From IMG/VR virus record IMGVR_UViG_2547132278_000009: a DNA stretch of 40,040 bases; one strand, 5' to 3'. Every line of letters begins with the position of its first letter. The stretch's first letter is position 1. The DNA comes from a virus. Taxonomy: Duplodnaviria; Heunggongvirae; Uroviricota; Caudoviricetes. Positions 7,401 through 39,894 of this stretch are shown piece after piece. The translations under genes and the position numbers were made by a program. The notes beneath the pieces were generated by a model. That model worked only from the letters and a program-made list of their open reading frames with translations, did no database searches and was not told the DNA's origin.

Positions 7401-9020
7401 GCCAACTACCCCCATGATCCCTGCTCGCATCAGTTTGAACGCAACCATCGCGGCCACGACCTTACCGAGATTAATTACCAGCTCTTGGTTCTTTGCTAAC
7501 CATTGAGCAAGCTGACGCAACCCATCGATTGCCGTTGTTAACCCCGAACCTAAAGAATTGGCAAACGAAATCCCTTCGGCGCTATTCATGATTGAAGCCA
7601 GTTCTTTCATCCCCTTCGATAGAGAATCCAGATATCCGGCCTGACCAACCCGATCAGCAAATAACGTGAATGACGTCTGAAGTTGCGCCAGCGCACCTGT
7701 GTAGGTTTGCATCATGTCTTTCGCTGCGTTCTCATTCTCCGCACGCAGACCAACAAACATCAGAGACAACGCCTGTTTTGCCTCAACCGTACCGCTGGCA
7801 ACGGCTTTAGTCAGTTCCCCCATAGTGATGCCTGCGGCGTCTGCCATTGCCTGCATCGCGTTAGGAACGGCTTCACCTAATTGCTGACGTAGCTCTTCCA
7901 TTGACACAACGCCCTTACCGGACATCTGCTGAACGGCCACAGCCGCACGTTTCAACAGCTCACTATCACCACCAAAACGAGCAACGGAGTCCACCAGCGC
8001 CTTCAGAGAACCATCGGTTGGATCTAAGCCAGCAGAACGAAACTTCACGAAGGAGTCTGTTAACGCCTGCATCGCGAACGGCGCATTTTGAGCCATGTCT
8101 ACGATGTACTTCATGTCATCGGCGGCAGCCTGGCCAGGGTTGGACTTCTCCTTATTCAACCCTCGAAGCATCACCCGCATACGTTCCATTTCGGCCGCAG
8201 CTTCAACAATAGGCTTCTGCCACCCAAACATGATGTCAGTAACCGTTCTGGCTGCATCTCCGATCTCGCCAAGCAGGAAAATGTTGCCACGAAGGCCAGA
8301 GAACATACCTCCTTCGTTACTTTTACCGCTATGGCCAGAAGCGCCGCTACGCCGCCCGCTACCACCATCGCCACTTCCAGATGTACGAACGCGTACCGGC
8401 TTGCTAATCAGTTGCTGACGTCCGATAACTTCGTCCATCTGCTCACGAACCTTTTTCAGTCCCTCGGCAGCCTGACTCGTTGTGACACCCCAATTACTGA
8501 GTCGCTTCGTCGTGGTATTAAGGCGCGTATTCATGCCACTCACGGACGCAGAGGCTTCTTTGACCTCCGTACCAAAGCGGCTTGCGCTTTTGCTTGCATA
8601 GGTCGCCCAATCAGAGAAATCATTTAGCTCTGATTGCACTTTACGTAATGACGCGGTGAGTTTATCTACTGAAGAAGCTGTCGTATCGACGCGCTCAATC
8701 AGGGCTTTAAGACCAGAATTGAGGCTGGTGATGTTGCCACGCATTTTACGCGTAGCATCTGAAGCAAGCTCAAAACCGGCAGCTACATCCTGTAGTTTAT
8801 CTGCCGTAGAATCGAGCTTGCTTTCCAGAACGCCAATGATACGGGCGACCGAACCCAAAGAGCGTTCAAAGGTTTGGATTTTTTGAGCAGGCTTTGTTAC
8901 CTGCTCACCAAATCGAGTAAGCAGTTTCCCCGCACGATCGATTGACGCTGTAAACTGTTTGTCTTCCAGCGACAGGATAAACTCTACGTTTTGTGACATT
9001 CCCTTGTCATCCTCTGCCAA
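4446..9020 (-). CDS. Tail tape measure protein
   Basis: 1524-aa mostly alpha-helical/coiled-coil ORF with Gly/Ser/Thr/Ala-rich segments, located between G/GT and M as in lambda H. Confidence 0.85.
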   Translation of the reverse strand: MAEDDKGMSQNVEFILSLEDKQFTASIDRAGKLLTRFGEQVTKPAQKIQTFERSLGSVARIIGVLESKLDSTADKLQDVAAGFELASDATRKMRGNITSLNSGLKALIERVDTTASSVDKLTASLRKVQSELNDFSDWATYASKSASRFGTEVKEASASVSGMNTRLNTTTKRLSNWGVTTSQAAEGLKKVREQMDEVIGRQQLISKPVRVRTSGSGDGGSGRRSGASGHSGKSNEGGMFSGLRGNIFLLGEIGDAARTVTDIMFGWQKPIVEAAAEMERMRVMLRGLNKEKSNPGQAAADDMKYIVDMAQNAPFAMQALTDSFVKFRSAGLDPTDGSLKALVDSVARFGGDSELLKRAAVAVQQMSGKGVVSMEELRQQLGEAVPNAMQAMADAAGITMGELTKAVASGTVEAKQALSLMFVGLRAENENAAKDMMQTYTGALAQLQTSFTLFADRVGQAGYLDSLSKGMKELASIMNSAEGISFANSLGSGLTTAIDGLRQLAQWLAKNQELVINLGKVVAAMVAFKLMRAGIMGVVGAGSQMVSTFATMATAIQTPFNLGATAVTRFNRAARMGLAPIPSLIFAIRGAITGLKGAFAGLTAFIAANPIGAAFTVATVAVAGLITYMTMLRSETSKVVDEIRKIPEAMTAAKRAQMADRAEKLEKQILADQRALKTGEGVNYVSNSAGVITHKESKADIEARLKKNQEEYQKITGTIALGDGAVAKRLAKEAAESQIEKIRAENQIFAATFVKARQEALDKIQKINDDGSLSDDEKNKLLAPLRETVNKSYLEPAQKLVDSLSSRKNATEKQIATLNDQLEKAKKDGNTEQIQKLQGSIRGYQEHLEAVAQELTQAEFERDNAAKTGKGVMSNQGTVLGLGTTDKAAKKALAQYMRNQMDSATYQRTLPDGTPMMDFEGKPIIGPKQLKTQLNLQKASSASSLEKMSDEERAAAIAALTKAREQDAAAAEKAAQRSANASQRAAKKEQAAQQKLAAGYQKALDKADQLMGQMGESSKATVSFDQSLRDTTKSLTDLANAVPNEFITQEMIDKAKKRLEDLKNATPEYREMFNRRNVEQMISTWAPEADSIISAGYTPSREEKVADFEDTYNRNLKALIELRDKASDPKVVALYTKKINQLIAAGNTALIKETGTATQKLALEYENLAEQIESTWTDLFSGLTDVLTDFVINGKMSFSSLSQSILKDITNMVVKSQITLPLMNMLGMGTTAAGSSQSGNLLTGVASAVANQGVRMGNTVNGDKSVGEATKETSSSVTGLGQTTQQTTSAIGTATNAIGSWVSGLFDSTEAKDAETKAVKDSIFSMQNLSSVTGALSAAFAMLGANASGSGNKWLSFGATVASGLVSAWAGGGFDSVTSSSAKTATSSVADGTKGIPAIPKFANGGIFGKDGVIPLRAYQKGGIANSPQLALFGEGDMNEAYVPLPDGRTIPVTLSTDGMSGGGNVLSPVSIEINVHSDGSTTESGDTESIWNNAAQRMKAIALETIAQEKRPGGSLNPNTQRN

Positions 9021-9735: not shown

Positions 9736-10482
9736 TTAGCTTGCGGCAGTTACAGAGACGGCTTTGGTCGCCTTCTTGGCACCGTCATTAGTTGTGAAGG
9801 TGATATTGGCTGAACCGACAGCTTTACCAGTTACCAGTCCGTTCTGATCTACGGTCGCTTTATCAGTCGCATCAGAGCTCCACACGCCAGTCTTATTGGT
9901 TGCATCGGCCGGGGTGAAGGTTGCGCTCAATTGAACTTTAGTGCCCACTTTTACGGTCGGTGAAGACGGGGTCAGCGTGACGCTCTCAACCGGCTTTGGG
10001 AGGCTCATTTTCCCCAACACGCCAGCGTCGTCCGGGTAAGCGGAAAACTCAACTGAGAACACGCGAACGTCGTCAGACTGGTAGGTCATGGTGAAGTTAC
10101 CCGCGGTTGCTGCTTTAGGGATGGTCAGAACATAATCCGTCGCATCCTGCGGGGTCAGCACCAACTCTTTCGCAACGTCGATCAGGTTCACTCCCTGCGC
10201 AGACGTGATGGTTACGGTATCTTCGCCAGAACTCAGCGTGGAACCTGGCATCAGATCGACCATGTTTTTCAACACGGATTCAGCCAGCGGCGCAGTAATG
10301 GTGATGTTGCGGCCCTGGATCAGCTCGGAGATCGTGGTCTGGCCCAGCTGGTCTACGGTCACTTTCAGCGTTTCGGTTGCGATTTCAACCTGAACACCAC
10401 CTTTGGTGTAACCCAAATCCACACCACCAAACGACACCTTACAGGCACCAAGTTTGATGTTTTTTACATGGGTATTAGACAT
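9736..10482 (-). CDS. Major tail protein V-like with C-terminal Ig-like (Big_2-type) domain
   Basis: ORF 9736..10518, likely start MSNTHVKN at 10482; C-terminal repeat VTLTPSSPTVKVGTKVQLSATFTPADATNKTGVWSSDATDKATVDQNGLVTG typical of Big_2 domains, as in lambda gpV. Confidence 0.75.
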   Translation of the reverse strand: MSNTHVKNIKLGACKVSFGGVDLGYTKGGVQVEIATETLKVTVDQLGQTTISELIQGRNITITAPLAESVLKNMVDLMPGSTLSSGEDTVTITSAQGVNLIDVAKELVLTPQDATDYVLTIPKAATAGNFTMTYQSDDVRVFSVEFSAYPDDAGVLGKMSLPKPVESVTLTPSSPTVKVGTKVQLSATFTPADATNKTGVWSSDATDKATVDQNGLVTGKAVGSANITFTTNDGAKKATKAVSVTAAS

Positions 10483-10556
10483 TGATGGAAAACTCCTTTT
10501 TCCGTTAATTCTACGCATTCATTGCGCTAATAGTAAGTATATACTTACCAATTGAG

Positions 10557-10913
10557 TTAATTCAATAAATAGCCAGCAAATTCAACAGGAATGCCTGCTT
10601 CTATTAATGCCCCATCATTTTTGGGATAAATGATTGGCATCGCCATCGGTCGCACCAGTCGAAAATAAACACCACCAGATTCCGTTTCCTCTACTGGAAA
10701 CATCTCAATGATTTTATTGGCTTTCTCAACCGTCGTAGTAATTGACGAACCACGCACAATTATTGTGAATGATTCGTGGTAAAAGCCCTGTAGCTCATGA
10801 TCGATGCTGATACCGGTATTTGGGTTAATAAGCAGGACGCCAGATTTCACATTGGCAGGCAAGTAGTGACAGAAAATGTCAGTCCCGACCGTGCCAATCT
10901 TTGCCTTCTGCAT
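10557..10913 (-). CDS. Tail component, U-like position (tail terminator candidate)
   Basis: Position between V and the head-tail joining genes; start chosen at internal MQKAKIG to avoid overlap with the upstream gene; no motif recognised. Confidence 0.4.
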   Translation of the reverse strand: MQKAKIGTVGTDIFCHYLPANVKSGVLLINPNTGISIDHELQGFYHESFTIIVRGSSITTTVEKANKIIEMFPVEETESGGVYFRLVRPMAMPIIYPKNDGALIEAGIPVEFAGYLLN

Positions 10914-18803: not shown

Positions 18804-19435
18804 TATTCGTCCTCCCCTTCACTTCCATCATCTGTCGCATCAAATTCGCTTAGAGCTTCTTCTTCCAACGTCTCAAGCAATTCGTCATCGATGATTTCAG
18901 GCTCGTCGTCTTCCTGACGTAATTTCGCCACCTGGGAAGGCGTAAGCTCACCAAATACCAGGTTCGGAATTTCTTCCTCGTCATTTTCCGCATGATCCAT
19001 GCCCAATGCTTTGGACGAAACTTCAAAGCATTTTGCAAGGGTATTACTGGCTCTCTGTAAGCTCTTGAGAGAATCCTCAATCGCCCCTAAAGGCTTACCC
19101 TCACGTTTGGCCGTAGTGACTTCGACCATCACCATCTGCCCCAACGCATACGCCCAGCCGTCATAACGTGTACGACGTTCTTCTATCTTTTCCGCACGGG
19201 CTTTAGCGCGAAGCTCTGCGTCAGATTTAAGAGACTCACGAACCATCTTCCCAACAGAGTCCGCGCCTTTCTCTAATCCTCGCTTTTTGAAATGTCTGGA
19301 GAGTGTTTCACGACGAATGCCGTACTCTTCCTCCAGCTTTGAGAGTGTATATTCGCCTGACGTCCATTTGGCTTCAGCTTCGGCCCACTCCGCTGGTGTC
19401 AGGCGAGTTTTTACCTCGTCTTTTTCGACCGTCAT
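18803..19435 (-). CDS. Terminase small subunit (candidate)
   Basis: 210 aa, N-terminal HTH-like region, very acidic C-terminus; directly upstream of the large subunit. Confidence 0.6.
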   Translation of the reverse strand: MTVEKDEVKTRLTPAEWAEAEAKWTSGEYTLSKLEEEYGIRRETLSRHFKKRGLEKGADSVGKMVRESLKSDAELRAKARAEKIEERRTRYDGWAYALGQMVMVEVTTAKREGKPLGAIEDSLKSLQRASNTLAKCFEVSSKALGMDHAENDEEEIPNLVFGELTPSQVAKLRQEDDEPEIIDDELLETLEEEALSEFDATDDGSEGEDE

Positions 19436-19474
19436 AGATCCCTCTAAAACACACAGAGCGCGTCCATGCGCTCT

Positions 19475-19517
19475 AAAACAACTTGTTTACTGCATCTGCT
19501 AACCAACTTGTTTTCTG
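19475..19517 (-). promoter_or_regulatory. Two copies of the palindromic operator family (AAAACAA-N-TTGTTT) upstream of the terminase small subunit gene
   Basis: AAAACAACTTGTTTAC (19475-19490) and AACCAACTTGTTTTCTG (19501-19517), with adjacent inverted repeat AGAGCGC-N6-GCGCTCT. Confidence 0.45.
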
Positions 19518-19630
19518 GGGTGTTTAATTAGATCTGGCATGTCTTACGAAGCCTGCTTCCGTATATATTTAATAAGTTACTTATTATTTATATATATAGA
19601 TGCAGGTCTTTAAATAAGCTCCCAGACCGA

Positions 19631-24795: not shown

Positions 24796-25218
24796 ATGAA
24801 ATACTCGCTTCTCCCTCTACTAACGTTACCAGTGTTGATGCTTACCGCGTGCCAATCACGCCCAATATCAATCCATGACGCCAAACCAGCACCGCAGGCC
24901 AAAGTGTTCAAGTATCAAAGCGCAGCGCCAGCTACGTTGGTGGTAATGAGAGACACAGGTTTTGTAGGAGCTGGATGTGATGCTTCCATTTTCATCAACG
25001 GCGAAACTGTCGCAAAACTGGCTACAGGCGAAAAAGCGACTTTCCATTTAAATGCCGGAGAATTAATTGTGGGTGCATCTCTTGAAGGTGCAGGTTTATG
25101 TGCTCTAAACCCCGCTCGTCAAGAGCGAGAAACGACTCTGAAGAATGGAGACACAAAAGCGTTCAGGGTGTTCACCAGCAATTCTGGTGACATCGACATT
25201 CTGCCAACAACTCTGTGA
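24796..25218 (+). CDS. Putative lipoprotein
   Basis: ORF 24754..25218; signal peptide MKYSLLPLLTLPVLMLTAC with lipobox L-T-A-C; preceded by GGGAGA RBS. Confidence 0.55.
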   Translation: MKYSLLPLLTLPVLMLTACQSRPISIHDAKPAPQAKVFKYQSAAPATLVVMRDTGFVGAGCDASIFINGETVAKLATGEKATFHLNAGELIVGASLEGAGLCALNPARQERETTLKNGDTKAFRVFTSNSGDIDILPTTL

Positions 25219-25747
25219 TGACATGACAACCAAAGATATTACCTACGGTATCCAAGCTGAACTCTGGCCGCGAGATTACACTAACGTTGAAAAACTACTG
25301 ATGTTCTGGCGCAGAGAACAAATTCCTGTAAGGGTCACTCTCGAAGATGGCCAGGCGTTTTGCATGTACGTTTATGGCCTCATGCCATCTCGTAACAAAG
25401 TTGACCTTTGCCCAGCCCCTTTTGACAAAGAAAATCGTATAAGGCTCCCACTTGAACGCATTAGTACAATTGAATCAGGTGTGGTTGACAGTATCGCTCA
25501 CGATTTCAAAGGTCGACTAACAGTTCACCCTGATTATGTCGATAATCGGCCATCACGCCGCGATTTTTTTGCAATTTGCAACCAAGCCTACAAAGCAAAC
25601 AAATCTATAAGGGTGTACATGGCGGATGGCCGTGAAATTGAGGGGGTGTCAGCAGGCGCAGATGCTTGTCAGGTTACACTACGTGTCGAGAACGGTAGAA
25701 AAATAGTTGTTTTGTTCGATTGGGTTGAACGAATTTTGCCTTTTTGA
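25214..25747 (+). CDS. Hypothetical protein with apparent internal duplication
   Basis: ORF 25145..25747; likely start MTTKDITYG overlapping the lipoprotein stop; two similar segments (IPVRVTLEDGQAFCMYVYG / IRVYMADGREIEGVSAG). Confidence 0.45.
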   Translation, partial: CDDMTTKDITYGIQAELWPRDYTNVEKLLMFWRREQIPVRVTLEDGQAFCMYVYGLMPSRNKVDLCPAPFDKENRIRLPLERISTIESGVVDSIAHDFKGRLTVHPDYVDNRPSRRDFFAICNQAYKANKSIRVYMADGREIEGVSAGADACQVTLRVENGRKIVVLFDWVERILPF

Positions 25748-28612: not shown

Positions 28613-28632
28613 AAATAACAAATTGTTTTCTT
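28613..28632 (-). promoter_or_regulatory. Palindromic operator copy (AACAAATTGTT core) upstream of the 160-aa gene
   Basis: AATAACAAATTGTTTTCTTG read directly; flanking TTAATTAACACCAACAAG block is shared with the site at 31143. Confidence 0.45.
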
Positions 28633-29375: not shown

Positions 29376-29395
29376 CAGAAAACAAATTGTTATCG
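29376..29395 (-). promoter_or_regulatory. Palindromic operator copy upstream of the acidic 124-aa gene
   Basis: CAGAAAACAAATTGTTATCG; adjacent hairpin GGCGCG-N6-GCGCC likely terminator of the upstream gene. Confidence 0.45.
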
Positions 29396-30280: not shown

Positions 30281-30299
30281 GTAAACAACTTGTTTTCTC
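30281..30299 (-). promoter_or_regulatory. Palindromic operator copy (GAAAACAA-G-TTGTTTAC) in the 5' leader of the basic-protein gene
   Basis: Read directly; lies within a ~60-bp module duplicated at 30765-30840. Confidence 0.5.
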
Positions 30300-30764: not shown

Positions 30765-30783
30765 TTAAACATGTTGTTTTCTG
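30765..30783 (-). promoter_or_regulatory. Palindromic operator copy (GAAAACAA-C-ATGTTTAA) upstream of the acidic 109-aa gene
   Basis: Read directly; part of duplicated promoter module. Confidence 0.5.
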
Positions 30784-31142: not shown

Positions 31143-31159
31143 TAAACATGTTGTTTACT
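31143..31159 (-). promoter_or_regulatory. Palindromic operator copy upstream of the 72-aa gene
   Basis: TAAACATGTTGTTTACT with the same flanking TTAATAACACCAACAAG block as the site at 28613. Confidence 0.45.
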
Positions 31160-31491
31160 TGTTGGTGTTATTAACGCAATAAGACAAAGGCGAAAAAGGA
31201 TTTTATTCCGGTGAATGTGGTTTTGGCAGTGAGTTTTCAGGTTCAGTACCGAGTACACTTTTTACATTATTCTGATTTAGTGGCCGAAAGTGGCTGGTGG
31301 CAGAGTAATCCTCTCCCCAAAAACCTACTGAAATCGATTGTGCCCCGTTGGCTGTCTGGCACAATTACGCTGTAGCTGGGCATTCAGAGGGAATCCAGCG
31401 GTAAGCAAGCCCGCCTACGTGAGCGCCTCTCTTCTTCCCGCACATTACAGGTGGGTAGCCGCAACTCTCCCTCTCGCTATACCGGTACGCC

Positions 31492-31622
31492 GCCGTTCCT
31501 GAACCGGCATCGAGCCTTTTCCCGAAATCCACACAGGCAACTCGACCGTTTCCCTGAAAATCCCCAGCCGTTCCCCGAAGGCAACCCAGCCGTTTCTGTA
31601 GCGGGATGCAACCTTTTCCCTG
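31492..31622. repeat. Iteron-like direct repeat array B (6 copies of G/A-CCGTTTCC-type units at about 22-bp spacing)
   Basis: Units begin at about 31492, 31514, 31545, 31567, 31589, 31610; several followed by GAAA. Confidence 0.65.
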
Positions 31623-31699
31623 TATGGACCGAAGACTGACCGTAGGGGTGTTACGGGGGGATAAAATCAGGAGTTGAATAAATACGAAAAAGGAGGCGA

Positions 31700-32600
31700 C
31701 ACCCCTCCTTCCCTCCCCACTTATACATACCTGGCTTCTTCGCTATACATGTTGTGTTTTATCTGTCTCAACCTCTCTATAGGCGTTAATGCTCACTCCT
31801 TCCAGAATGTTCTATACGGCGACTATTTCTGTTGGTGAATTGGGTGTGTTGTTTTCTCTGTCGGTGTATGTGGTTTCGTTCGTTTTGCGGTGGTTCTTCT
31901 ATGGGGTGTTCTCGTCGTTTTGGTGATTGTTCTTCTCCGTGTATGGAGTAATGGCAGGTGGGCGATTGCTTTCGTTATTGTGTTTGAGTTGTTTGTCTGG
32001 AGTGTGTGAAAGGCTTTTGTAGTTATTCGTGTATTGGGTAATGGCGTTTCCCGTGATTGTTATGTTTCGTGTCTTTTGGGATTGAGAGAAACCTTGCGGT
32101 TATAGGCTTCGTTGGGTTTTCAGTGATTCTGGTGTTTCTTCGCTGTTTGGGGAATGGCGTGTCGTGGGTATTGCGCGTATGAATGTTTTCGGATTGCCTG
32201 TGAAAGTTAGGTTGGCTGTCCGGTAGCCTGGGGAGAAGAGGTGGGTCTTTTCGGTAGCCTGCCATAAAGAGGTTGGTTGTTTTTGGGAATGGCATTTGTG
32301 TTATTTAGTTGTTTTGTTATGCCTGAAAATAAGTTGTTTATATGGTTGTGTAACGCAACGGGAGCGATTTTGAGCGTGTGTTTTTGTTGGTAGTGTGTTG
32401 GGTCGTCTGTGGTGAAAATTGGACGCTGTGGCGCTGTCTGCTGCGTAGAATTACGGGTATAAGAAGTGATGTGTGAAAACGTCAATTTTTTAGACCAAAT
32501 CGGGTGAAAGCGTTGATGTTTCGTTGATCTGTTATTCAGTTGTTTTCTTGATTGTATAAACAACTATAACTTATTGATATTTAAGGATGTGATTGCGGGT
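31700..32600. other. About 0.9 kb ORF-free tract with extreme G+T richness on the plus strand
   Basis: Long runs of G/T-only words; recurring GG(G/T)AATGGC units near 31951, 32037, 32143, 32287; only low-complexity ORFs. Confidence 0.6.
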
Positions 32601-32682
32601 ATGGAAAGGGAGTAGTGGCGATCAACGGATTCTTATAGAAAAGAATCAAATTGTGACCGCCATTATCAATGAGTTGCAACCG

Positions 32683-33252
32683 TTAGTTGTTCAGATAAAC
32701 ATTTGGAACACGGACGTAGAAGTTCCTGTCGCCGGTAAGTTCCAGAGTAATGTTAATGTCATTACCATTGTCTAGTGTAGCCGTTGCTCTATAGAACTTA
32801 TCCGTCACCTTGTCCTCTATTGTCACCTTCATACATTTTGGTGCAGTCGAACCGTTATTCTCTTTCAGAATAGTTGTCACGAGAGGGCAGGCTGCTTCTT
32901 CAAGAGCAACCTCGTCCTTGTGTGGGATGCCGATGAAGATAATCCAAGCCAGCGACGCAACGATTATGATAAATGGCACTCTGCTGCCTTTTGTAATAGT
33001 CGCGCGCTTCCAGAGATAGACAGGCAGGAGGAATACCCCCCATAGAATTGAAGGTGGTTCACAGCCAGACTCCGATAGAGCCATTCTGTCAGCTACTAAC
33101 AAACCGATGGTAGTTACACCCCCAATTATAATAGCGTAATTGGTATACTCTTCCGGCGATACTCCAAAGAAGAAAGGCATGAACGCTAGAATCCACGCAT
33201 AAATGTTATTCAGAGGTTTTGTTTGTTGGTTCTGGGTTTCCATCACATCCAT
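32683..33252 (-). CDS. Membrane protein (about 3-4 predicted transmembrane helices plus C-terminal soluble domain)
   Basis: 189 aa; hydrophobic segments IYAWILAFMPFFFG, AIIIGGVTTIGLLV, ILWGVFLLPVYLW, FIIIVASLAWIIFIGI. Confidence 0.55.
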   Translation of the reverse strand: MDVMETQNQQTKPLNNIYAWILAFMPFFFGVSPEEYTNYAIIIGGVTTIGLLVADRMALSESGCEPPSILWGVFLLPVYLWKRATITKGSRVPFIIIVASLAWIIFIGIPHKDEVALEEAACPLVTTILKENNGSTAPKCMKVTIEDKVTDKFYRATATLDNGNDINITLELTGDRNFYVRVPNVYLNN

Positions 33253-33404
33253 TCCATCACATAAAAATCGCGTTTATATATTATCAATTTTCTCACTTGT
33301 ATAACCTAAATACGCATCCGTTTATCAATTCACCTTCCACAAACATCAGCTTTAGCTATGAAAAATAACAATCTCAAAGTGAAAACCATTATCATAGGAA
33401 ACGA

Positions 33405-33590
33405 TTAGATGAGATGGTCTAATTCATCATCTATCATTGCTTTAACACTTGAGTCATTAACCCCGTATTGATTTATGAACCGTTTCAGCTCCGGTGAAAA
33501 CTGAAGGTAGATATCGTGAGCGTTTTTCACTGTAGGTTCAACGCCACGCATTTCAAGCGCCTTTAGTAGATATGAGTCTTCTTTAAGCAT
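33405..33590 (-). CDS. Hypothetical small protein (61 aa)
   Basis: ORF downstream of the 102-aa gene, likely co-transcribed. Confidence 0.4.
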   Translation of the reverse strand: MLKEDSYLLKALEMRGVEPTVKNAHDIYLQFSPELKRFINQYGVNDSSVKAMIDDELDHLI

Positions 33591-33626
33591 AAATTCTCCG
33601 TTGTCTAGTATGAAGCGATTGCCGGA

Positions 33627-33935
33627 TTACCATTGCCAGCACTCTAGCCCTTCAACGACCGGTGCACCACAATCAAAATGTACAGAGTCAAAGCCTACAT
33701 CAAGTACTTTCTGAATGTTAGCAATCGCGCCTTCGGATATACCATATCGACGCAAGTCCTCTTTCCAGACATCATCCTGTAACCCGGCGTGGACAATACA
33801 ACCGCCGTCAATTTGTGAAACCCAATCCAGCTCATTGCTTGCGATCATGAATCGGCGAGCATCTTCCTCTGATGTATGAGATGAACTGATCAATGCCACC
33901 TGGTAGGCTTGGGTAATGTTCAACATTTCAACCAC
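33627..33935 (-). CDS. Hypothetical acidic protein (102 aa)
   Basis: ORF preceded by two operator copies; acidic composition. Confidence 0.5.
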   Translation of the reverse strand: MVEMLNITQAYQVALISSSHTSEEDARRFMIASNELDWVSQIDGGCIVHAGLQDDVWKEDLRRYGISEGAIANIQKVLDVGFDSVHFDCGAPVVEGLECWQW

Positions 33936-33937
33936 TC

Positions 33938-34007
33938 CAAAACAATTTGTTTTCTTATGTGGCTTATTATCTCAATCAACAAAAGGTAGAAAACAAATTG
34001 TTTTAGG
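33938..34007 (-). promoter_or_regulatory. Two perfect or near-perfect copies of the 17-bp palindromic operator
   Basis: CAAAACAATTTGTTTTC (33938-33954) and GAAAACAAATTGTTTTA (33991-34007), just downstream of the metG terminator. Confidence 0.5.
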
Positions 34008-34029: not shown

Positions 34030-34060
34030 TGTGTCTATATGAAAATGCCCAGCGTGTTGC
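34030..34060 (-). terminator. Probable metG terminator
   Basis: Minus-strand hairpin GCCCGGCAACACGCTGGGC followed by ATTTTCAT, a few tens of bp after the metG stop; coordinates approximate. Confidence 0.5.
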
Positions 34061-34087
34061 CGGGCATTGCGAAGAGAGGTTGTTTAA

Positions 34088-36121
34088 TTACTTAACCTGA
34101 TGGCCTGGTTTAGCACCGGCATCCGGGCTTAACAGGAAGATATCTTTCCCGCCGGGGCCAGCAGCCATCACCATGCCTTCAGAGATACCGAAGCGCATTT
34201 TACGCGGAGCCAGGTTAGCCACCATAATGGTGTGACGACCAATCAGTGCCTGTGGATCTGGATAAGCGGAACGGATGCCTGAGAAGACATTACGCTTTTC
34301 ACCACCGAGATCCAGCGTCAGGCGCAGCAGTTTGTCAGAACCTTCGACAAACTCCGCGTTTTCAATCAGCGCCACACGCAGGTCAACTTTGGCGAAGTCG
34401 TCAAAGGTGATGGTTTCCTGAATCGGGTCGTCAGCCAGTGGGCCAGTTACCGGTGCAGCTGTGGCTTTCACTTCTTCTTTGGATGCTTCCACCAGTGCTT
34501 CCACCTGTTTCATATCGATACGGTTATACAGTGCCTTGAACGGATTCACTTTATGGCCCAGCAGCGGTTGCTGGATACCATCCCAGGTCAGTTCTGTATT
34601 CAGGAATGCTTCTGCACGTTCAGTCAGTTTCGGCAGTACCGGTTTCAGGTACGTCATCAGCACGCGGAACAGGTTAATGCCCATAGAGCAAATCGCCTGC
34701 AGATCGGCATCGCGTCCTTCCTGCTTCGCCACCACCCACGGAGCCTGTTCATCGACATAGCGGTTAGCCAGATCAGCCAGCGCCATGATTTCACGAATCG
34801 CTTTACCAAATTCGCGGCTTTCCCATGCTTCACCAATCACTTCAGCGGCATCAGTAAAGGTTTTGTACAGTTGCGGGTCAGCCAGTTCGCCTGCCAGCAC
34901 ACCGTCAAAACGCTTATTGATAAAGCCCGCGTTACGGGACGCCAGATTCACCACTTTGTTCACGATATCGGCATTCACGCGCTGAACGAAATCCTCCAGG
35001 TTGAGATCGATATCATCAATGCGCGAAGAGAGTTTCGCAGTGTAGTAGTAACGCAGGCTGTCAGCGTCAAAATGATTCAGCCAGGTGCTGGCTTTAATAA
35101 AGGTGCCGCGAGACTTGGACATCTTCGCACCGTTCACCGTCACATAGCCATGAACAAACAGGTTGGTCGGCTTGCGGAAGTTGCTGCCTTCCAGCATGGC
35201 AGGCCAGAACAGGCTGTGGAAGTAAACGATATCTTTACCGATGAAGTGGTACAGCTCGGCGGTGGAGTCTTTCTTCCAGTATTCGTCGAAGCTGGTAGTG
35301 TCGCCGCGTTTGTCGCACAGATTCTTGAAGGAACCCATGTAGCCAATCGGTGCGTCCAGCCAGACGTAGAAATATTTGCCCGGTGCGTTCGGAATTTCAA
35401 AACCGAAGTACGGCGCATCGCGGGAGATATCCCACTGTTGCAGGCCAGATTCAAACCACTCCTGCATTTTGTTTGCCACCTGCTCCTGCAACGCACCGCT
35501 GCGGGTCCATGCCTGCAACATTTCGCTGAAAGAGGGCAGATCAAAGAAGAAGTGTTCGGAATCACGCATTACCGGCGTAGCACCAGAAACTACCGATTTC
35601 GGCTCGATCAGTTCAGTCGGGCTGTAAGTCGCGCCGCAGACTTCACAGTTATCGCCGTATTGATCTGGCGCTTTACATTTAGGACAGGTGCCTTTTACAA
35701 AACGGTCCGGCAGGAACATGCCTTTTTCCGGGTCGTACAACTGAGAGATAGTGCGGTTTTTAATAAAACCGTTCTCTTTCAGGCGAGTATAGATAAGCTC
35801 AGACAACTGACGGTTCTCTTCGCTGTGCGTCGAGTGATAGTTGTCATAGCTGATGTTAAAGCCTGCGAAATCAGTCTGATGTTCCTGACTCATTTCGCCA
35901 ATCATCTGCTCCGGTGTGATACCAAGCTGCTGTGCTTTCAGCATGATCGGCGTACCGTGGGCATCGTCGGCACAGATGAAATTAACCTCGTGGCCGCGCA
36001 TTCGCTGGTAACGAACCCAGACATCAGCCTGGATGTGCTCCAGCATATGGCCGAGGTGGATTGAGCCGTTAGCGTACGGCAGCGCGCACGTCACCAGAAT
36101 TTTCTTCGCGACTTGGGTCAT
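34088..36121 (-). CDS. metG: Methionyl-tRNA synthetase
   Basis: Near-identity to E. coli MetG as I recall it (start [36 protein letters not shown] motif present); ORF-track N-terminal extension discarded. Confidence 0.97.
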
Positions 36122-36278
36122 AGTAGGCATTACTTCTTTGTAGTGAAAAGGGGCTTGATAGTAACAAAATGGCCTTATGTCTGCCATGTGATAACAGCAT
36201 TTCTCATAAATGATTAAATGTCGTAGCTGGAGTACACTACAAGGCGACAATTGCGCAAATTAAAATAAAGGAGACGGG

Positions 36279-37379
36279 ATGAGCGAGTCCAAATCGCCGG
36301 ATGCCCTGAGAGCAATGGTAGCCGGTACGCTGGCTAATTTTCAGCACCCAACCCTGAAACACAACCTGACTACGCTTAAAGCGTTACACCATGTTGCGTT
36401 GATGGATGACACACTGCATGTCGAACTAATCATGCCTTTCGTGTGGAATAAGCCTTTTGAAGACCTGAAAGAGCAATGTAGTGGTGATCTGCTCCGTATC
36501 ACTGGCGCAAAGGCTATTGACTGGAAGCTGTCGTACAACATTGCCACGCTTAAGCGTGTCAAAAACCAACCAGGCATTAATGGCGTTAAGAACATTATCG
36601 CCGTCAGCTCAGGCAAGGGCGGCGTGGGTAAATCCTCCACGGCGGTAAACCTGGCACTGGCGTTGGCTGCTGAAGGTGCGAAAGTTGGTATTTTGGATGC
36701 CGATATCTATGGTCCATCAATTCCAACCATGCTGGGCGCGGAAAACCAACGTCCAACCTCACCTGACGGTACTCACATGGCACCTATCATGTCTCATGGC
36801 CTGGCAACCAACTCTATTGGTTATCTGGTCACCGACGACAATGCAATGGTGTGGCGTGGACCGATGGCCAGCAAGGCGCTGATGCAGATGTTGCAGGAAA
36901 CTCTATGGCCTGATCTGGACTATCTTGTTCTCGATATGCCGCCGGGCACTGGTGATATTCAGTTGACGCTGGCGCAGAACATTCCTGTAACTGGTGCTGT
37001 TGTGGTAACTACGCCGCAAGACATCGCGCTGATCGATGCGAAGAAAGGCATTGTGATGTTCGAAAAAGTCGAAGTGCCGGTACTGGGTATCGTCGAAAAC
37101 ATGAGTGTGCATATTTGCAGTAACTGCGGTCATCACGAGCCAATTTTCGGCACCGGTGGCGCAGAGAAACTGGCCGAGAAATACAACACGCAGTTGTTAG
37201 GCCAAATGCCACTTCATATCTCACTTCGTGAAGATCTGGATAACGGAACACCAACCGTTATTAGTCGTCCAGATAGCGAATTTACGGCTATTTATCGTGA
37301 CCTCGCAGATCGCGTTGCTGCCCAAATGTATTGGCAAGGTGAAGTAATACCTGGCGAAATCGCATTCCGCGCAGTGTGA
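36279..37379 (+). CDS. mrp: Mrp/ApbC iron-sulfur cluster carrier ATPase
   Basis: Near-identity to E. coli Mrp as I recall it (P-loop SGKGGVGKSS, CSNCGHHE motif); divergent from metG. Confidence 0.95.
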   Translation: MSESKSPDALRAMVAGTLANFQHPTLKHNLTTLKALHHVALMDDTLHVELIMPFVWNKPFEDLKEQCSGDLLRITGAKAIDWKLSYNIATLKRVKNQPGINGVKNIIAVSSGKGGVGKSSTAVNLALALAAEGAKVGILDADIYGPSIPTMLGAENQRPTSPDGTHMAPIMSHGLATNSIGYLVTDDNAMVWRGPMASKALMQMLQETLWPDLDYLVLDMPPGTGDIQLTLAQNIPVTGAVVVTTPQDIALIDAKKGIVMFEKVEVPVLGIVENMSVHICSNCGHHEPIFGTGGAEKLAEKYNTQLLGQMPLHISLREDLDNGTPTVISRPDSEFTAIYRDLADRVAAQMYWQGEVIPGEIAFRAV

Positions 37380-39234: not shown

Positions 39235-39614
39235 TTATCTCTCTCAGTATGTTGCGATGGCGTAAATTTGACGACATCAAATATTTTGGATGGCATCAAC
39301 TTTATCCGCGAGCTTAGTTCGGCTCTTCTCTGTAATGCGGTTAATAATGTTTTCGTTCTGACGCCTTCGTGTATCCTCATCCCTGGCACAAGAACTACAT
39401 CGCAGGGGAGATGCTCAGGTGACAAATCATTTTGGGCATCGCTAATCAGTCGTGTAATCTCTCTTTCAAGCCGACCGCCTAGCTCTGTTTTAGTGCAATG
39501 TTCTGACCAATCGCCAGCCTCAAGCAGCGCGAGAATGCTTAAAATATCGTCCAATAGATCAGTGGTATTATCGACTTCCTTCTGAAACTCACCGGCTACT
39601 GATTTATGCATCAT
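39231..39614 (-). CDS. Hypothetical protein (127 aa)
   Basis: ORF translationally coupled to the 208-aa gene. Confidence 0.45.
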   Translation of the reverse strand: MMHKSVAGEFQKEVDNTTDLLDDILSILALLEAGDWSEHCTKTELGGRLEREITRLISDAQNDLSPEHLPCDVVLVPGMRIHEGVRTKTLLTALQRRAELSSRIKLMPSKIFDVVKFTPSQHTERDK

Positions 39615-39894
39615 TCGTCATCCTCATCCGAGTCATCCTCATCACAGGATGAGAGTAGTGGGTTAGTCATTCGCCCTACTTGAGTGGCGTAGCCACGCCG
39701 ACAGAGATTGCGCAGCACACTGTATATTTCGAACATCTCGGTTCGTTCATCGCCAACATCAAGCTCAGATGCTATAGCGTGGCATTCAGTCGCGAGAGCC
39801 GATATTTTCGTAAGCGTAAAGCCAATGCCGTCTGTAACACCTGCTCCTTGCAGACTAAATTAGAGCTCCTTCTAAATTAGACGGAGTTCTATTG

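Follow-up and report, generated by a model that had tools for sequence, protein, structure and literature searches.

We showed that the two small acidic genes lying directly beyond metG in the analysed stretch of DNA (40,040 nucleotides, hereafter the window) border, within a phage-plasmid of the SSU5 type, on a cargo insertion carrying metG-apbC. The locus is probably an internal, operator-controlled transcription unit of this phage-plasmid family, silenced by a repressor and placed just downstream of the insertion, and it most likely constitutes a lytic or entry-phase accessory operon. The main value of the analysis is corrective, as what appeared to be a junction between a mobile element and the chromosome has turned out to be the border of acquired DNA within a phage-plasmid. 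Taken alone, the operon is a conserved accessory unit of an ordinary kind; the regulon defined by its operator, with a possible repressor of the FljA family, provides the more interesting leads.

The first-pass annotation had described two small acidic genes preceded by the metG terminator and a double operator, and this anatomy was confirmed on the minus strand (Table 1). The interpretation attached to it, i.e. that the operon marks the right-hand junction of an integrated element with the chromosome, is contradicted by the distribution of the locus. The window represents an SSU5-like E. coli phage-plasmid: all 275 matches of the 1.5-kb region across 235 complete E. coli genomes lay on plasmids of approx. 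100-120 kb and none was chromosomal, phage-plasmid DNA is found on both sides of metG-apbC, and the window also contains genes for TerL, portal and tape-measure proteins. Core DNA on one side, accompanied by an att repeat or an integrase, as expected of a prophage-chromosome junction, was not found, and an integrase or att repeat had not been seen because the junction does not exist. Scans of the whole window for Rfam families and tRNAs gave no matches. The operon was not detected downstream of metG in element-free strains, where its presence had been named as refuting the junction, but this does not rescue the junction reading.

Table 1. Positions of the features discussed, numbered from the first nucleotide of the window
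Feature	Position	Strand	Remarks
Gene 1, 99 aa, DUF5983 C-terminal domain (PF19419)	33627..33926	-	orthologue of SSU5_105
Gene 2, 61 aa, four-helix, acidic (phrog_11467)	33405..33590	-	positional counterpart of SSU5_106
Shine-Dalgarno (SD) GGAG and ATG of gene 1	33924..33938	-	GGAG 33935-33938; ATG 33924-33926
Proximal operator O2, AAAACAAATTGTTTT	33939..33953		perfect palindrome, approx. +7 to +21, abuts the SD
Extended -10, TGAGATAAT	33966..33974	-	read from the sequence; predicted transcription start near 33959
Distal operator O1, AAAACAATTTGTTTT on the transcribed strand	33990..34004		perfect 7-1-7 palindrome
metG intrinsic terminator	34040..34068	-	10-bp stem, 5-nt loop (34044-34068), then UUUU (34040-34043)
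metG (methionine-tRNA ligase)	34088..36121	-	annotated in RefSeq on plasmid pPEC178_2 (99.8% identical)
apbC/mrp	36279..37379	+	acquired together with metG, the two being divergent
189-aa predicted membrane protein (phrog_12486)	32683..33252	-	downstream of gene 2
Variable cassette, 61-aa and 189-aa genes	32672..33626		blastn breakpoints, annotations
Operator pair before the packaging operon (TerS-like DNA-binding protein, TerL, portal)	19475..19514		19475-19489, 19500-19514
Further single operators	28615-28629, 29379-29393, 30282-30296, 30766-30780, 31143-31157 (last: 3 mismatches)
FljA-family protein (Pfam Flag1_repress; phrog_1444 'transcriptional repressor')	25145..25747	+	Pfam 2.5e-84

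Comparison with related elements assigns the operon to the SSU5-family backbone, since the promoter-operator cassette, the DUF5983 orthologue and a small gene recur in the same order. In Salmonella phage SSU5 (JQ965645) the succession O1, TGAGATAAT, O2 and SD (88.6% identical to that of the window over 69 bp) is followed by SSU5_104, SSU5_105 and the 63-aa SSU5_106, all of which are annotated as hypothetical. SSU5_105 is a Pfam DUF5983 protein (1.5e-22), and SSU5_106 is a small acidic helical protein encoded after the DUF5983 gene, as in the window. SSU5 differs in possessing an additional first gene, SSU5_104 (78 aa; RefSeq calls its E. coli homologue DUF1380), and a fourth gene of 399 aa, and in having no metG-apbC upstream. 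A metagenomic phage-plasmid contig (L009) carries the same module, followed by an 80-aa gene, a DUF5983 gene and a homologue of the 61-aa gene, and it also lacks metG at the operon. The presence of the operon in SSU5-type genomes without metG therefore identifies metG as the insertion and the operon as backbone.

The two copies of the element-wide palindrome which had been noticed ahead of the operon are indeed there, and the same module was found in SSU5, phage Cyrano and the metagenomic relative. Both copies match AAAACAAWTTGTTTT perfectly, lie 51 bp apart (centre to centre) and flank an extended -10, TGAGATAAT; the SD and ATG come after them. Counted from the predicted transcription start, O1 occupies approx. 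-45 to -31, i.e. it lies over the -35 region, and its “distal class” context, CCCT-site-CTAC, recurs in SSU5 and L009. In these two genomes and in the window, the -10 is kept as TGAGATAAT or TGCGATAAT, 12-13 nt 5' of the proximal operators. Pairs with the 51-bp spacing were observed in the window, in Cyrano, twice in SSU5 and twice in L009, with distal sites covering the -35 region and proximal ones, 12-13 nt past the -10, abutting the SD. A simple consensus -35/-10 scan called no sigma-70 promoter here; the extended -10, read from the sequence, is the putative promoter element. The palindromes, as putative repressor-binding operators, show statistical enrichment, conserved position and conserved spacing. 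Their geometry appears typical of repression, although O1, with its centre near -38, could in principle be an activator site.

The palindrome is not confined to this operon. Six matches with at most two mismatches are present in the window, compared with 0.33 expected (none of 100 shuffled sequences reached six), and ten are obtained if the central base is left free. The closely related plasmid pPEC178_2 carries 18 operator sites per 100 kb (0.6 in shuffled sequences), situated just 5' of where replication, packaging, nrd and accessory operons begin, and SSU5 and L009 each have 11 sites per 12 kb. Each of the further single operators of the window directly precedes a small minus-strand gene. 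In these phage-plasmids, essentially all operons with lytic, replication or accessory roles are putatively under the guard of one palindromic operator. A literature search for an operator or repressor of SSU5 returned nothing usable, and no description of the palindromic operator was found in it. A parallel is the C1 regulon of P1, a plasmid prophage whose scattered lytic and accessory operons share one repeated operator, some copies of which are in pairs that permit looping. The operators of P1 are asymmetric 17-mers, in contrast to the symmetric 13-15-mers described here, and no homology is implied.

The terminator of metG, which lies upstream of the operon and has the same orientation (stop codon 34088-34090), completes the control region. 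It combines a GC-rich hairpin (dG -16.9 kcal/mol, z -4.85; none of 200 shuffled sequences as stable) with a U tract, albeit a short one (four U; UUUUC). A simple terminator scanner missed it, probably because it needs at least five T in the eight bases after the stem. This structure is predicted to insulate the operon from metG read-through.

We propose that a dimeric phage-plasmid repressor binds O1 and O2, probably cooperatively, the two centres being separated by about five helical turns. The extended -10 would then be enclosed by O1, which covers the -35 region, and O2, which falls within the leader's first ~20 nt, beside the ribosome-binding site. During plasmid-prophage life the repressor would keep the operon shut, while the terminator would stop transcription arriving from the constitutively needed metG. 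Once the repressor is absent or inactivated, upon entry into a naive cell or upon lytic induction, the operon would fire, together with the operons for replication, nucleotide metabolism and packaging and the row of small accessory genes that share its operator. The output would be two small acidic, cytoplasmic proteins, the 99-aa DUF5983 C-terminal domain and the 61-aa four-helix protein.

One candidate for the operator-binding repressor is the FljA-family protein, encoded on the strand opposite to the operon; within the phage collection its gene occurs only in SSU5-like phages, and in all of those examined. Two HTH regulators encoded elsewhere on the plasmid, at 10143-10706 and 19243-19629 of pPEC178_2, qualify just as well. 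SSU5_116, described as “repressor-like”, was rejected as the common regulator, as neither the window nor L009 has a counterpart. FljA of the Salmonella flagellar phase variation system binds fliC mRNA at its operator region and blocks its translation (PMC4122451), and the phage-plasmid encodes a full-length protein of the same family. It is conceivable, though unlikely, that this protein acts on the leader of the operon in the same manner. Such a mechanism would agree with the conservation of the gene in all SSU5-like phages found and with the proximal sites, which always abut the SD; similarly, the fliC leader of Salmonella and Citrobacter contains, just 5' of the SD, ACATCAAGTTGTAAT, whose core CAAGTTGT is shared with operator variants. 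However, this likeness was matched post hoc over 7-8 bases (chance about 0.01), and the two HTH regulators would serve equally well. As RNA, the site forms only a weak A-U hairpin: the leader structure around O2 and the SD is barely more stable than shuffled sequences (z -2.4). Moreover, half of the phage-plasmid sites are upstream of the promoter: those of the O1 class precede the -10, right after terminator hairpins, and so should lie outside the mRNA, which points to sites acting at the DNA level, as does the symmetry of the palindrome, typical of dimeric DNA binders.

Transcriptional repression was also weighed against the idea that the two genes are morons, i.e. lysogenic-conversion genes expressed in the plasmid state, with the palindromes acting as activator sites or being neutral. 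The genes do adjoin cargo (metG, apbC) and a swappable cassette, and the position of the O1 centre is one also used by class II activators. Nevertheless, the operons for packaging, helicase-primase and nrd, all necessarily off in a stable plasmid prophage, have the same site in front of them, O2 occupies a classic roadblock position downstream of the -10, and no site in the genome matches better than O1 and O2, which have no mismatches, an argument in favour of tight control. We consider moron expression in the plasmid state quite unlikely and retain repression as the preferred reading.

The first gene had been annotated as encoding a 102-aa protein. The corresponding open reading frame exists (33627-33935, with a GTG start), but the true start is almost certainly the internal ATG, giving 99 aa, because a GGAG SD is located 8 nt upstream and the PHROG profile and the homologues of SSU5 and L009 align from this Met. 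The protein is acidic (pI 4.35, net charge -10) and belongs to PF19419 (Pfam, 42.4 bits against a cutoff of 27, 8.6e-11), with residues 15-102 of the longer frame covering positions 3-90 of the 90-residue profile; it also matches phrog_5003 (3e-49), aligned from the Met encoded by the ATG. It is 50% identical to its L009 homologue and 46% identical to SSU5_105, and pairwise comparisons of the DUF5983 gene gave dN/dS values of 0.10-0.27. The AF2 model is of moderate confidence (pLDDT 72) and matched only other DUF5983 phage proteins in BFVD (TM 0.64-0.70), which places the domain in unrelated phages too. In Foldseek searches against the PDB, no match was better than E about 1; a glyoxalase/toxoflavin-lyase likeness, proposed for DUF5983, ranked only 27th (E 5.1) and was not accepted. 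A profile search of PDB sequences produced nothing significant, NCBIfam contained nothing for the operon proteins, and PADLOC (E <= 0.1) gave no model match for the 99-aa, 61-aa and 189-aa proteins.

The same domain is present in chromosomal islands of the CP4-44 type, where DUF5983 is encoded among antirestriction, RadC and CbeA/CbtA genes (PMC10790755); these surroundings and its spread over unrelated phages suit an accessory role. The YeeW/Aec77 proteins of these islands, encoded after cbeA-cbtA, have a homologous C-terminal PF19419 domain, approx. 23-25% identical to gene 1, with H17, D22, S30, E32, W35, G42, W54, G78, H83 and D85 invariant. They are, however, 162-163 aa long and begin with PF25638 (YeeW from L005 has both domains), whereas gene 1, without a Pfam match to PF25638, starts merely 10-15 residues before PF19419. 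Nor does it overlap a cbeA-cbtA pair, its upstream neighbours being a promoter and the metG terminator; neither cbtA nor cbeA is annotated on pPEC178_2. The chromosomal genes are followed by one for a small acidic protein of ~58-65 aa (DUF957), and gene 1 is likewise followed by one for a small acidic protein. A literature search on the function of yeeW yielded nothing usable. That DUF5983 occurs both in early operons of phage-plasmids and in the cbtA islands ubiquitous in E. coli (CbtA/YeeW-type modules occur in ~90% of its genomes) offers a handle on the role of this domain.

The 61-aa protein was correctly annotated, with its own GGAG. It is acidic (pI 4.88, net charge -4) and, judging from sequence searches, a near-orphan: exhaustive phmmer searches recovered its own cluster and one other, i.e. 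two clusters among 1.84 billion representatives. The homologue of the same length, found in L009, is 56% identical (pN 0.34 versus pS ~1.0), and homologue P0021 is also encoded directly after a DUF5983 gene. Such substitution values indicate that both genes of the operon are genuine and under purifying selection. The in-register alignment with SSU5_106 is marginal (hhalign probability 30%, E 5.5e-4). Although the AF2 model is confident (pLDDT 91), Foldseek found no matching fold in the PDB (none with E below 4). Homology to DUF957 was rejected (hhalign probability 0.3%), and so was a relationship with the RecBCD inhibitor gp5.9 of T7 (PF25708), which scored 16.9 bits (cutoff 24.5) over 17 residues and lacked fold support.

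This second gene forms part of a variable cassette, the left breakpoint of which falls exactly at the DUF5983 stop codon. Cyrano has a 244-aa coiled-coil gene in its place, and in Esc4 plasmid 2 the cassette is absent. No recognisable terminator separates the 61-aa and 189-aa genes, and the latter is possibly co-transcribed with the operon. The DUF5983 gene was found in 210 genomes, but the 61-aa gene in only 95 of these; since it is absent from more than half of the plasmids with DUF5983, the two proteins need not form a strict complex. The operon's conserved core would be DUF5983, with the 61-aa protein as a partner that evolves fast and can be dispensed with. We infer that both are host-directed accessory proteins, of the takeover or counter-defence type, and not structural or replication proteins.

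A bolder, rather improbable extension of this proposal is that stand-alone DUF5983, with or without the 61-aa protein, acts as an entry-phase counter-defence against CbtA/YeeW-type modules or other host immunity and, at the same time, that the FljA-family protein binds the genome-wide operator. If this were true, a homologue of a “flagellin repressor” would be the master lysogeny regulator of a phage-plasmid family, with possible cross-talk to host fliC.

Very unlikely, in our opinion, is a toxin-antitoxin or addiction pair autoregulated via the palindromes and aiding plasmid maintenance. Two adjacent small genes behind palindromic operators suit such a pair, the stop codon of cbtA is overlapped by DUF5983 on the chromosome, and a toxin-antitoxin survey scored DUF5983 as a conserved “partner” downstream of the CbtA toxin (PMC10790755). 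But at least 15 other promoters genome-wide have the operator too, so that its use for autoregulation is not private to the pair, the DUF5983 gene remains intact in the 115 of the 210 genomes that lack the 61-aa gene, and neither a toxin-like domain (Pfam), nor a PADLOC match, nor a nearby cbtA or cbeA was found.

The metG gene itself had been taken for chromosomal DNA, a view which does not hold: metG-apbC is captured cargo. The segment 34087-37375 is 88.4% identical to metG-mrp of E. coli K-12, and the homology breaks off precisely with the metG stop codon on one side and close to where apbC ends on the other. Both genes are annotated inside the matching plasmids and phage Cyrano, and beyond them the annotations of these elements list HumD, theta, type I R-M, nrd genes and RepB. 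That the operon is the right-hand end of an integrated prophage-like element, with metG as flanking chromosome, is extremely unlikely: metG and apbC (mrp) are indeed divergent chromosomal neighbours in K-12 and the G+C content climbs from ~0.44 to 0.52 at the metG boundary, but, apart from the exclusively plasmid matches, the pair lies within circular plasmids and Cyrano with phage-plasmid genes on either side, the K-12 identity is only 88.4% and stops at gene ends, Cyrano DNA persists past apbC in the window (to 38943, and at 39433-39809), and metG on a phage-plasmid has already been published (PMC12452169). As cited there (ref. 35, Tam et al. 2024), a phage-plasmid of S. sonnei carries its own methionine-tRNA ligase gene, as does the SSU5-like plasmid of the window, and this accounts for the “metG” beside the operon. 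According to that citation, the S. sonnei work concerns metG and antimicrobial tolerance rather than the small-gene operon or its operator. The reported link between phage-plasmid metG and tolerance gives this family clinical relevance.

The minus-strand operon behind the metG terminator is an accessory operon, probably repressor-guarded, of a phage-plasmid of the type of Salmonella phage SSU5. The first-pass annotation had placed the right-hand junction of the element with the chromosome at this site. A 1.5-kb region round the operon gave 275 matches in 235 of 5,426 complete E. coli genomes, all on plasmids of ~100-120 kb and none on a chromosome; the best (99.8%) was to plasmid pPEC178_2. 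In the phage collection, the same region matched the SSU5-like phage-plasmids Cyrano (pLF82), CMS-2020a and PhiR41_1, while the match to SSU5 was confined to the operator module. The genes metG and apbC are annotated inside the element in both pPEC178_2 and Cyrano, and beyond them lie further phage-plasmid genes (HumD, theta, a type I R-M system, nrdAB and RepB). Moreover, homology to the K-12 chromosome is limited to positions 34087-37375 (metG through apbC/mrp, 88.4% identity), with its boundaries at gene ends, one of them the metG stop codon. There is therefore no chromosomal junction here: the supposed junction is where inserted cargo borders on phage-plasmid DNA, and this explains why no integrase or att-like repeat had been recognized. 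Genes for TerL, portal and tape-measure proteins are also present in the window. The metG-apbC segment is a gene pair captured from a chromosome and supplies the host with a second MetRS. That phage-plasmids can carry metG is already on record, with a link to antimicrobial tolerance in Shigella sonnei (Tam et al. 2024, as cited in PMC12452169).

The remainder of the first-pass description was borne out: a small acidic two-gene operon with a double operator follows the metG terminator (Table), and the palindrome occurs at six sites in the window (at most two mismatches), against 0.33 expected. The products of gene 1 and gene 2 have pI values of 4.35 and 4.88, respectively. The 102-aa form of gene 1, begun at a GTG, was rejected, since this start falls within the Shine-Dalgarno sequence and finds no support in profiles or homologues. 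In RefSeq the product has 73 aa, the gene (pPEC178_2 73821-74042) being begun at an internal Met; Pfam and PHROG profiles, the Shine-Dalgarno sequence and the orthologues of SSU5 and of the metagenomic contig L009 all support the 99-aa form as the probable product. Transcription would start near 33959. Both genes are under purifying selection (dN/dS of 0.10-0.27 for gene 1; pN of 0.34 versus saturated pS for gene 2).

Table. Coordinates of the operon, of the operators and of candidate regulatory genes
Feature	Replicon	Position	Strand	Remarks
metG 3' end	window	34088	-	all operon features on same strand
metG terminator hairpin	window	34044-34068	-	10-bp stem then UUUU; dG -16.9 kcal/mol, z -4.85
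O1 (distal operator), perfect palindrome AAAACAATTTGTTTT	window	34004-33990	-	sequence reading
Extended -10 match, TGAGATAAT	window	33974-33966	-	sequence reading
O2 (proximal operator), perfect palindrome AAAACAAATTGTTTT	window	33953-33939	-	12 bases past -10; sequence reading
Shine-Dalgarno GGAG	window	33938-33935	-	directly 3' of O2; sequence reading
Gene 1 (99 aa)	window	33926-33627	-	ORF; ATG 8 nt beyond GGAG
Gene 2 (61 aa)	window	33590-33405	-	ORF; own GGAG; 36 nt after gene 1
Operator sites	window	19475, 19500, 28615, 29379, 30282, 30766, 31143, 33939, 33990
Operator pair	window	33939/33990		51-bp spacing
Operator pair	Cyrano	9167/9218		51-bp spacing
Operator pairs	SSU5	657/708, 6000/6051		51-bp spacing
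Operator pairs	L009	5326/5377, 9459/9510		51-bp spacing
Candidate regulator, HTH, 187 aa	pPEC178_2	10143-10706	+
Candidate regulator, second HTH protein	pPEC178_2		+	beside tyrosine recombinase
Candidate regulator, full-length FljA family	window	25145-25747	+	Pfam Flag1_repress, 2.5e-84; phrog_1444 'transcriptional repressor'

When the central base was left free, 10 sites were found in the window and 11 each in 12 kb of SSU5 and of L009; the palindrome AAAACAAnTTGTTT(T/A) occurs at 18 sites in the first 100 kb of pPEC178_2, versus 0.6 in shuffled sequences. Stacked in the direction of transcription, the sites fall into two position classes sharing the invariant core AACAAnnTGTT(T). Proximal sites, (C/T)AAG-AAAACAAnTTGTTTA-(A/C)GGA, lie 12-13 nt past a (TGn)GATAAT -10 box and abut the Shine-Dalgarno sequence, while distal sites, CCC(T/G)-(T/A)AAACAAnTTGTTTT-CT(A/G)C, overlie the -35 region, 51 bp further upstream, and often come immediately 3' of the hairpin that terminates the upstream gene. 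Operators are located directly 5' of the DnaB-like helicase, MipZ-like, CobT-like, packaging (TerS-like/TerL/portal) and nrd operons, and also precede a row of small genes at 28.1-31.1 kb of the window. Such a layout would be expected if a master repressor held the lytic programme of a plasmid prophage in check, and we infer that the operators mediate repression and are probably bound cooperatively. The C1 regulon of P1 would be the closest known analogy. Of the pairs in the plasmid, only that at 33939/33990 consists of two zero-mismatch sites, suggesting that the gene 1-gene 2 operon is tightly controlled. No prior description of the palindromic operator was found in the searchable literature.

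The SSU5 counterpart of this module comprises TAAACATCTTGTTTT, 36 nt containing TGAGATAAT, then AAAACAATTTGTTTA, AGGAG and ATG, followed by SSU5_104 (78 aa), SSU5_105 (106 aa; Pfam DUF5983, 1.5e-22) and SSU5_106 (63 aa). The sole distant homologue of the 61-aa protein (P0021, 56% identity) led to L009, a 107-kb SSU5-like contig carrying the same cassette, an 80-aa gene, a 105-aa DUF5983 gene (50% identity to the gene 1 protein) and the 61-aa homologue; metG is absent from the cassette position in SSU5 and in L009. In the E. coli plasmid Esc4 plasmid 2, metG is followed by the 80-aa gene (DUF1380 in RefSeq) and by DUF5983, which directly abuts the next conserved region. Cyrano has an identical DUF5983 gene and a 244-aa coiled-coil gene (8073-8854) in place of window positions 32672-33626, the breakpoint being exactly the DUF5983 stop codon. 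The DUF5983 gene is carried by 210 complete E. coli genomes and the 61-aa gene by 95, on plasmids only. By these layouts and counts, the conserved core is the double operator with the DUF5983 gene, and the 61-aa gene is an old yet dispensable partner. The operon belongs to the SSU5-family backbone, with a cassette hotspot directly after the DUF5983 stop codon. This position is occupied by the 61-aa gene and a 189-aa membrane protein gene in the window, by the coiled-coil gene in Cyrano and by nothing in Esc4; the 80-aa gene upstream of DUF5983 is also present or missing depending on the replicon.

The gene 1 protein consists of the DUF5983 C-terminal domain alone (42.4 bits, cutoff 27), and its close relatives are restricted to phage-plasmids of E. 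coli. A profile search recovered ~500 chromosomal YeeW/Aec77 members (~23-25% identity), which, in contrast, have 162-163 aa and an additional N-terminal PF25638 domain. In CP4-44-type islands, their genes come directly after the one for the CbtA toxin and before one for a small acidic DUF957 protein, with antirestriction, RadC and DUF987 genes around them. Residues invariant across both groups include H17, D22, E32, W35, W54, H83 and D85. The AF2 model (pLDDT 72) forms a beta-alpha-beta-beta-alpha-alpha-beta unit with no significant PDB neighbour; its viral structural neighbours are other DUF5983 proteins only, of Erwinia and Colwellia phages. DNA of cbtA-yeeW is present in 4,897 of 5,426 complete E. 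coli genomes (median two copies), and yeeW of K-12 is a 64-aa remnant of a 163-aa DUF5983 protein, its DUF957 neighbour being degraded too.

For the gene 2 protein, the AF2 model consists of four short helices (pLDDT 91) with no PDB neighbour, and no family member beyond two clusters was found among 1.84 billion representatives. It shows marginal in-register similarity to SSU5_106 (probability 30%). It shares no similarity with DUF957, and a Pfam match to T7 gp5.9 was sub-threshold and had no other support. Neither PADLOC nor NCBIfam gave a match for the operon proteins. Since they are small, acidic, cytoplasmic and co-regulated with lytic functions, and considering the neighbours of DUF5983 in other mobile elements, our working inference is a host-directed accessory role in takeover or counter-defence.

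Most genes are on the minus strand. The few on the plus strand, the orientation expected for functions expressed in lysogeny, include three candidate regulators (Table). Within the phage collection, SSU5-like phages of Escherichia, Klebsiella and Salmonella are the only ones found to carry the FljA-family protein, the remaining hits being two short, partial ones to small phage fragments. The target of FljA in the repression of fliC is an "operator region" of the fliC mRNA (PMC4122451). The fliC leader of Salmonella and Citrobacter genomes (...ACATCAAGTTGTAATTGATAAGGA...ATG) has the core CAAGTTGT in common with operator variants, for example AAAACAAGTTGTTTA, and, as with the proximal operators, the shared stretch is just 5' of the Shine-Dalgarno sequence. 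Because this match of 7-8 bases was picked out post hoc (chance about 0.01 in a leader of 60 nt), it is a lead, not evidence, for the FljA-family protein as operator binder. The position of the distal sites outside the predicted transcripts argues for binding to DNA.

The genes of the operon are already in databases ("DUF5983 family protein" and "hypothetical protein"); better prospects are offered by the operator regulon, its presumed repressor and an adjoining conserved non-coding region rich in C and A. This region (31150-32680) is ~1.5 kb without credible ORFs and with an extremely C/A-rich minus strand (plus-strand GC skew up to +0.50, AT skew -0.57); its nucleotide identity to SSU5 and L009 is 66-68%. 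Rfam gave no match for the region, which may encode a long non-coding RNA or act in cis. An operator-like site is located near 32326, and the C/A-rich stretch ends near a GC-rich hairpin with a T-run at ~31690-31720.
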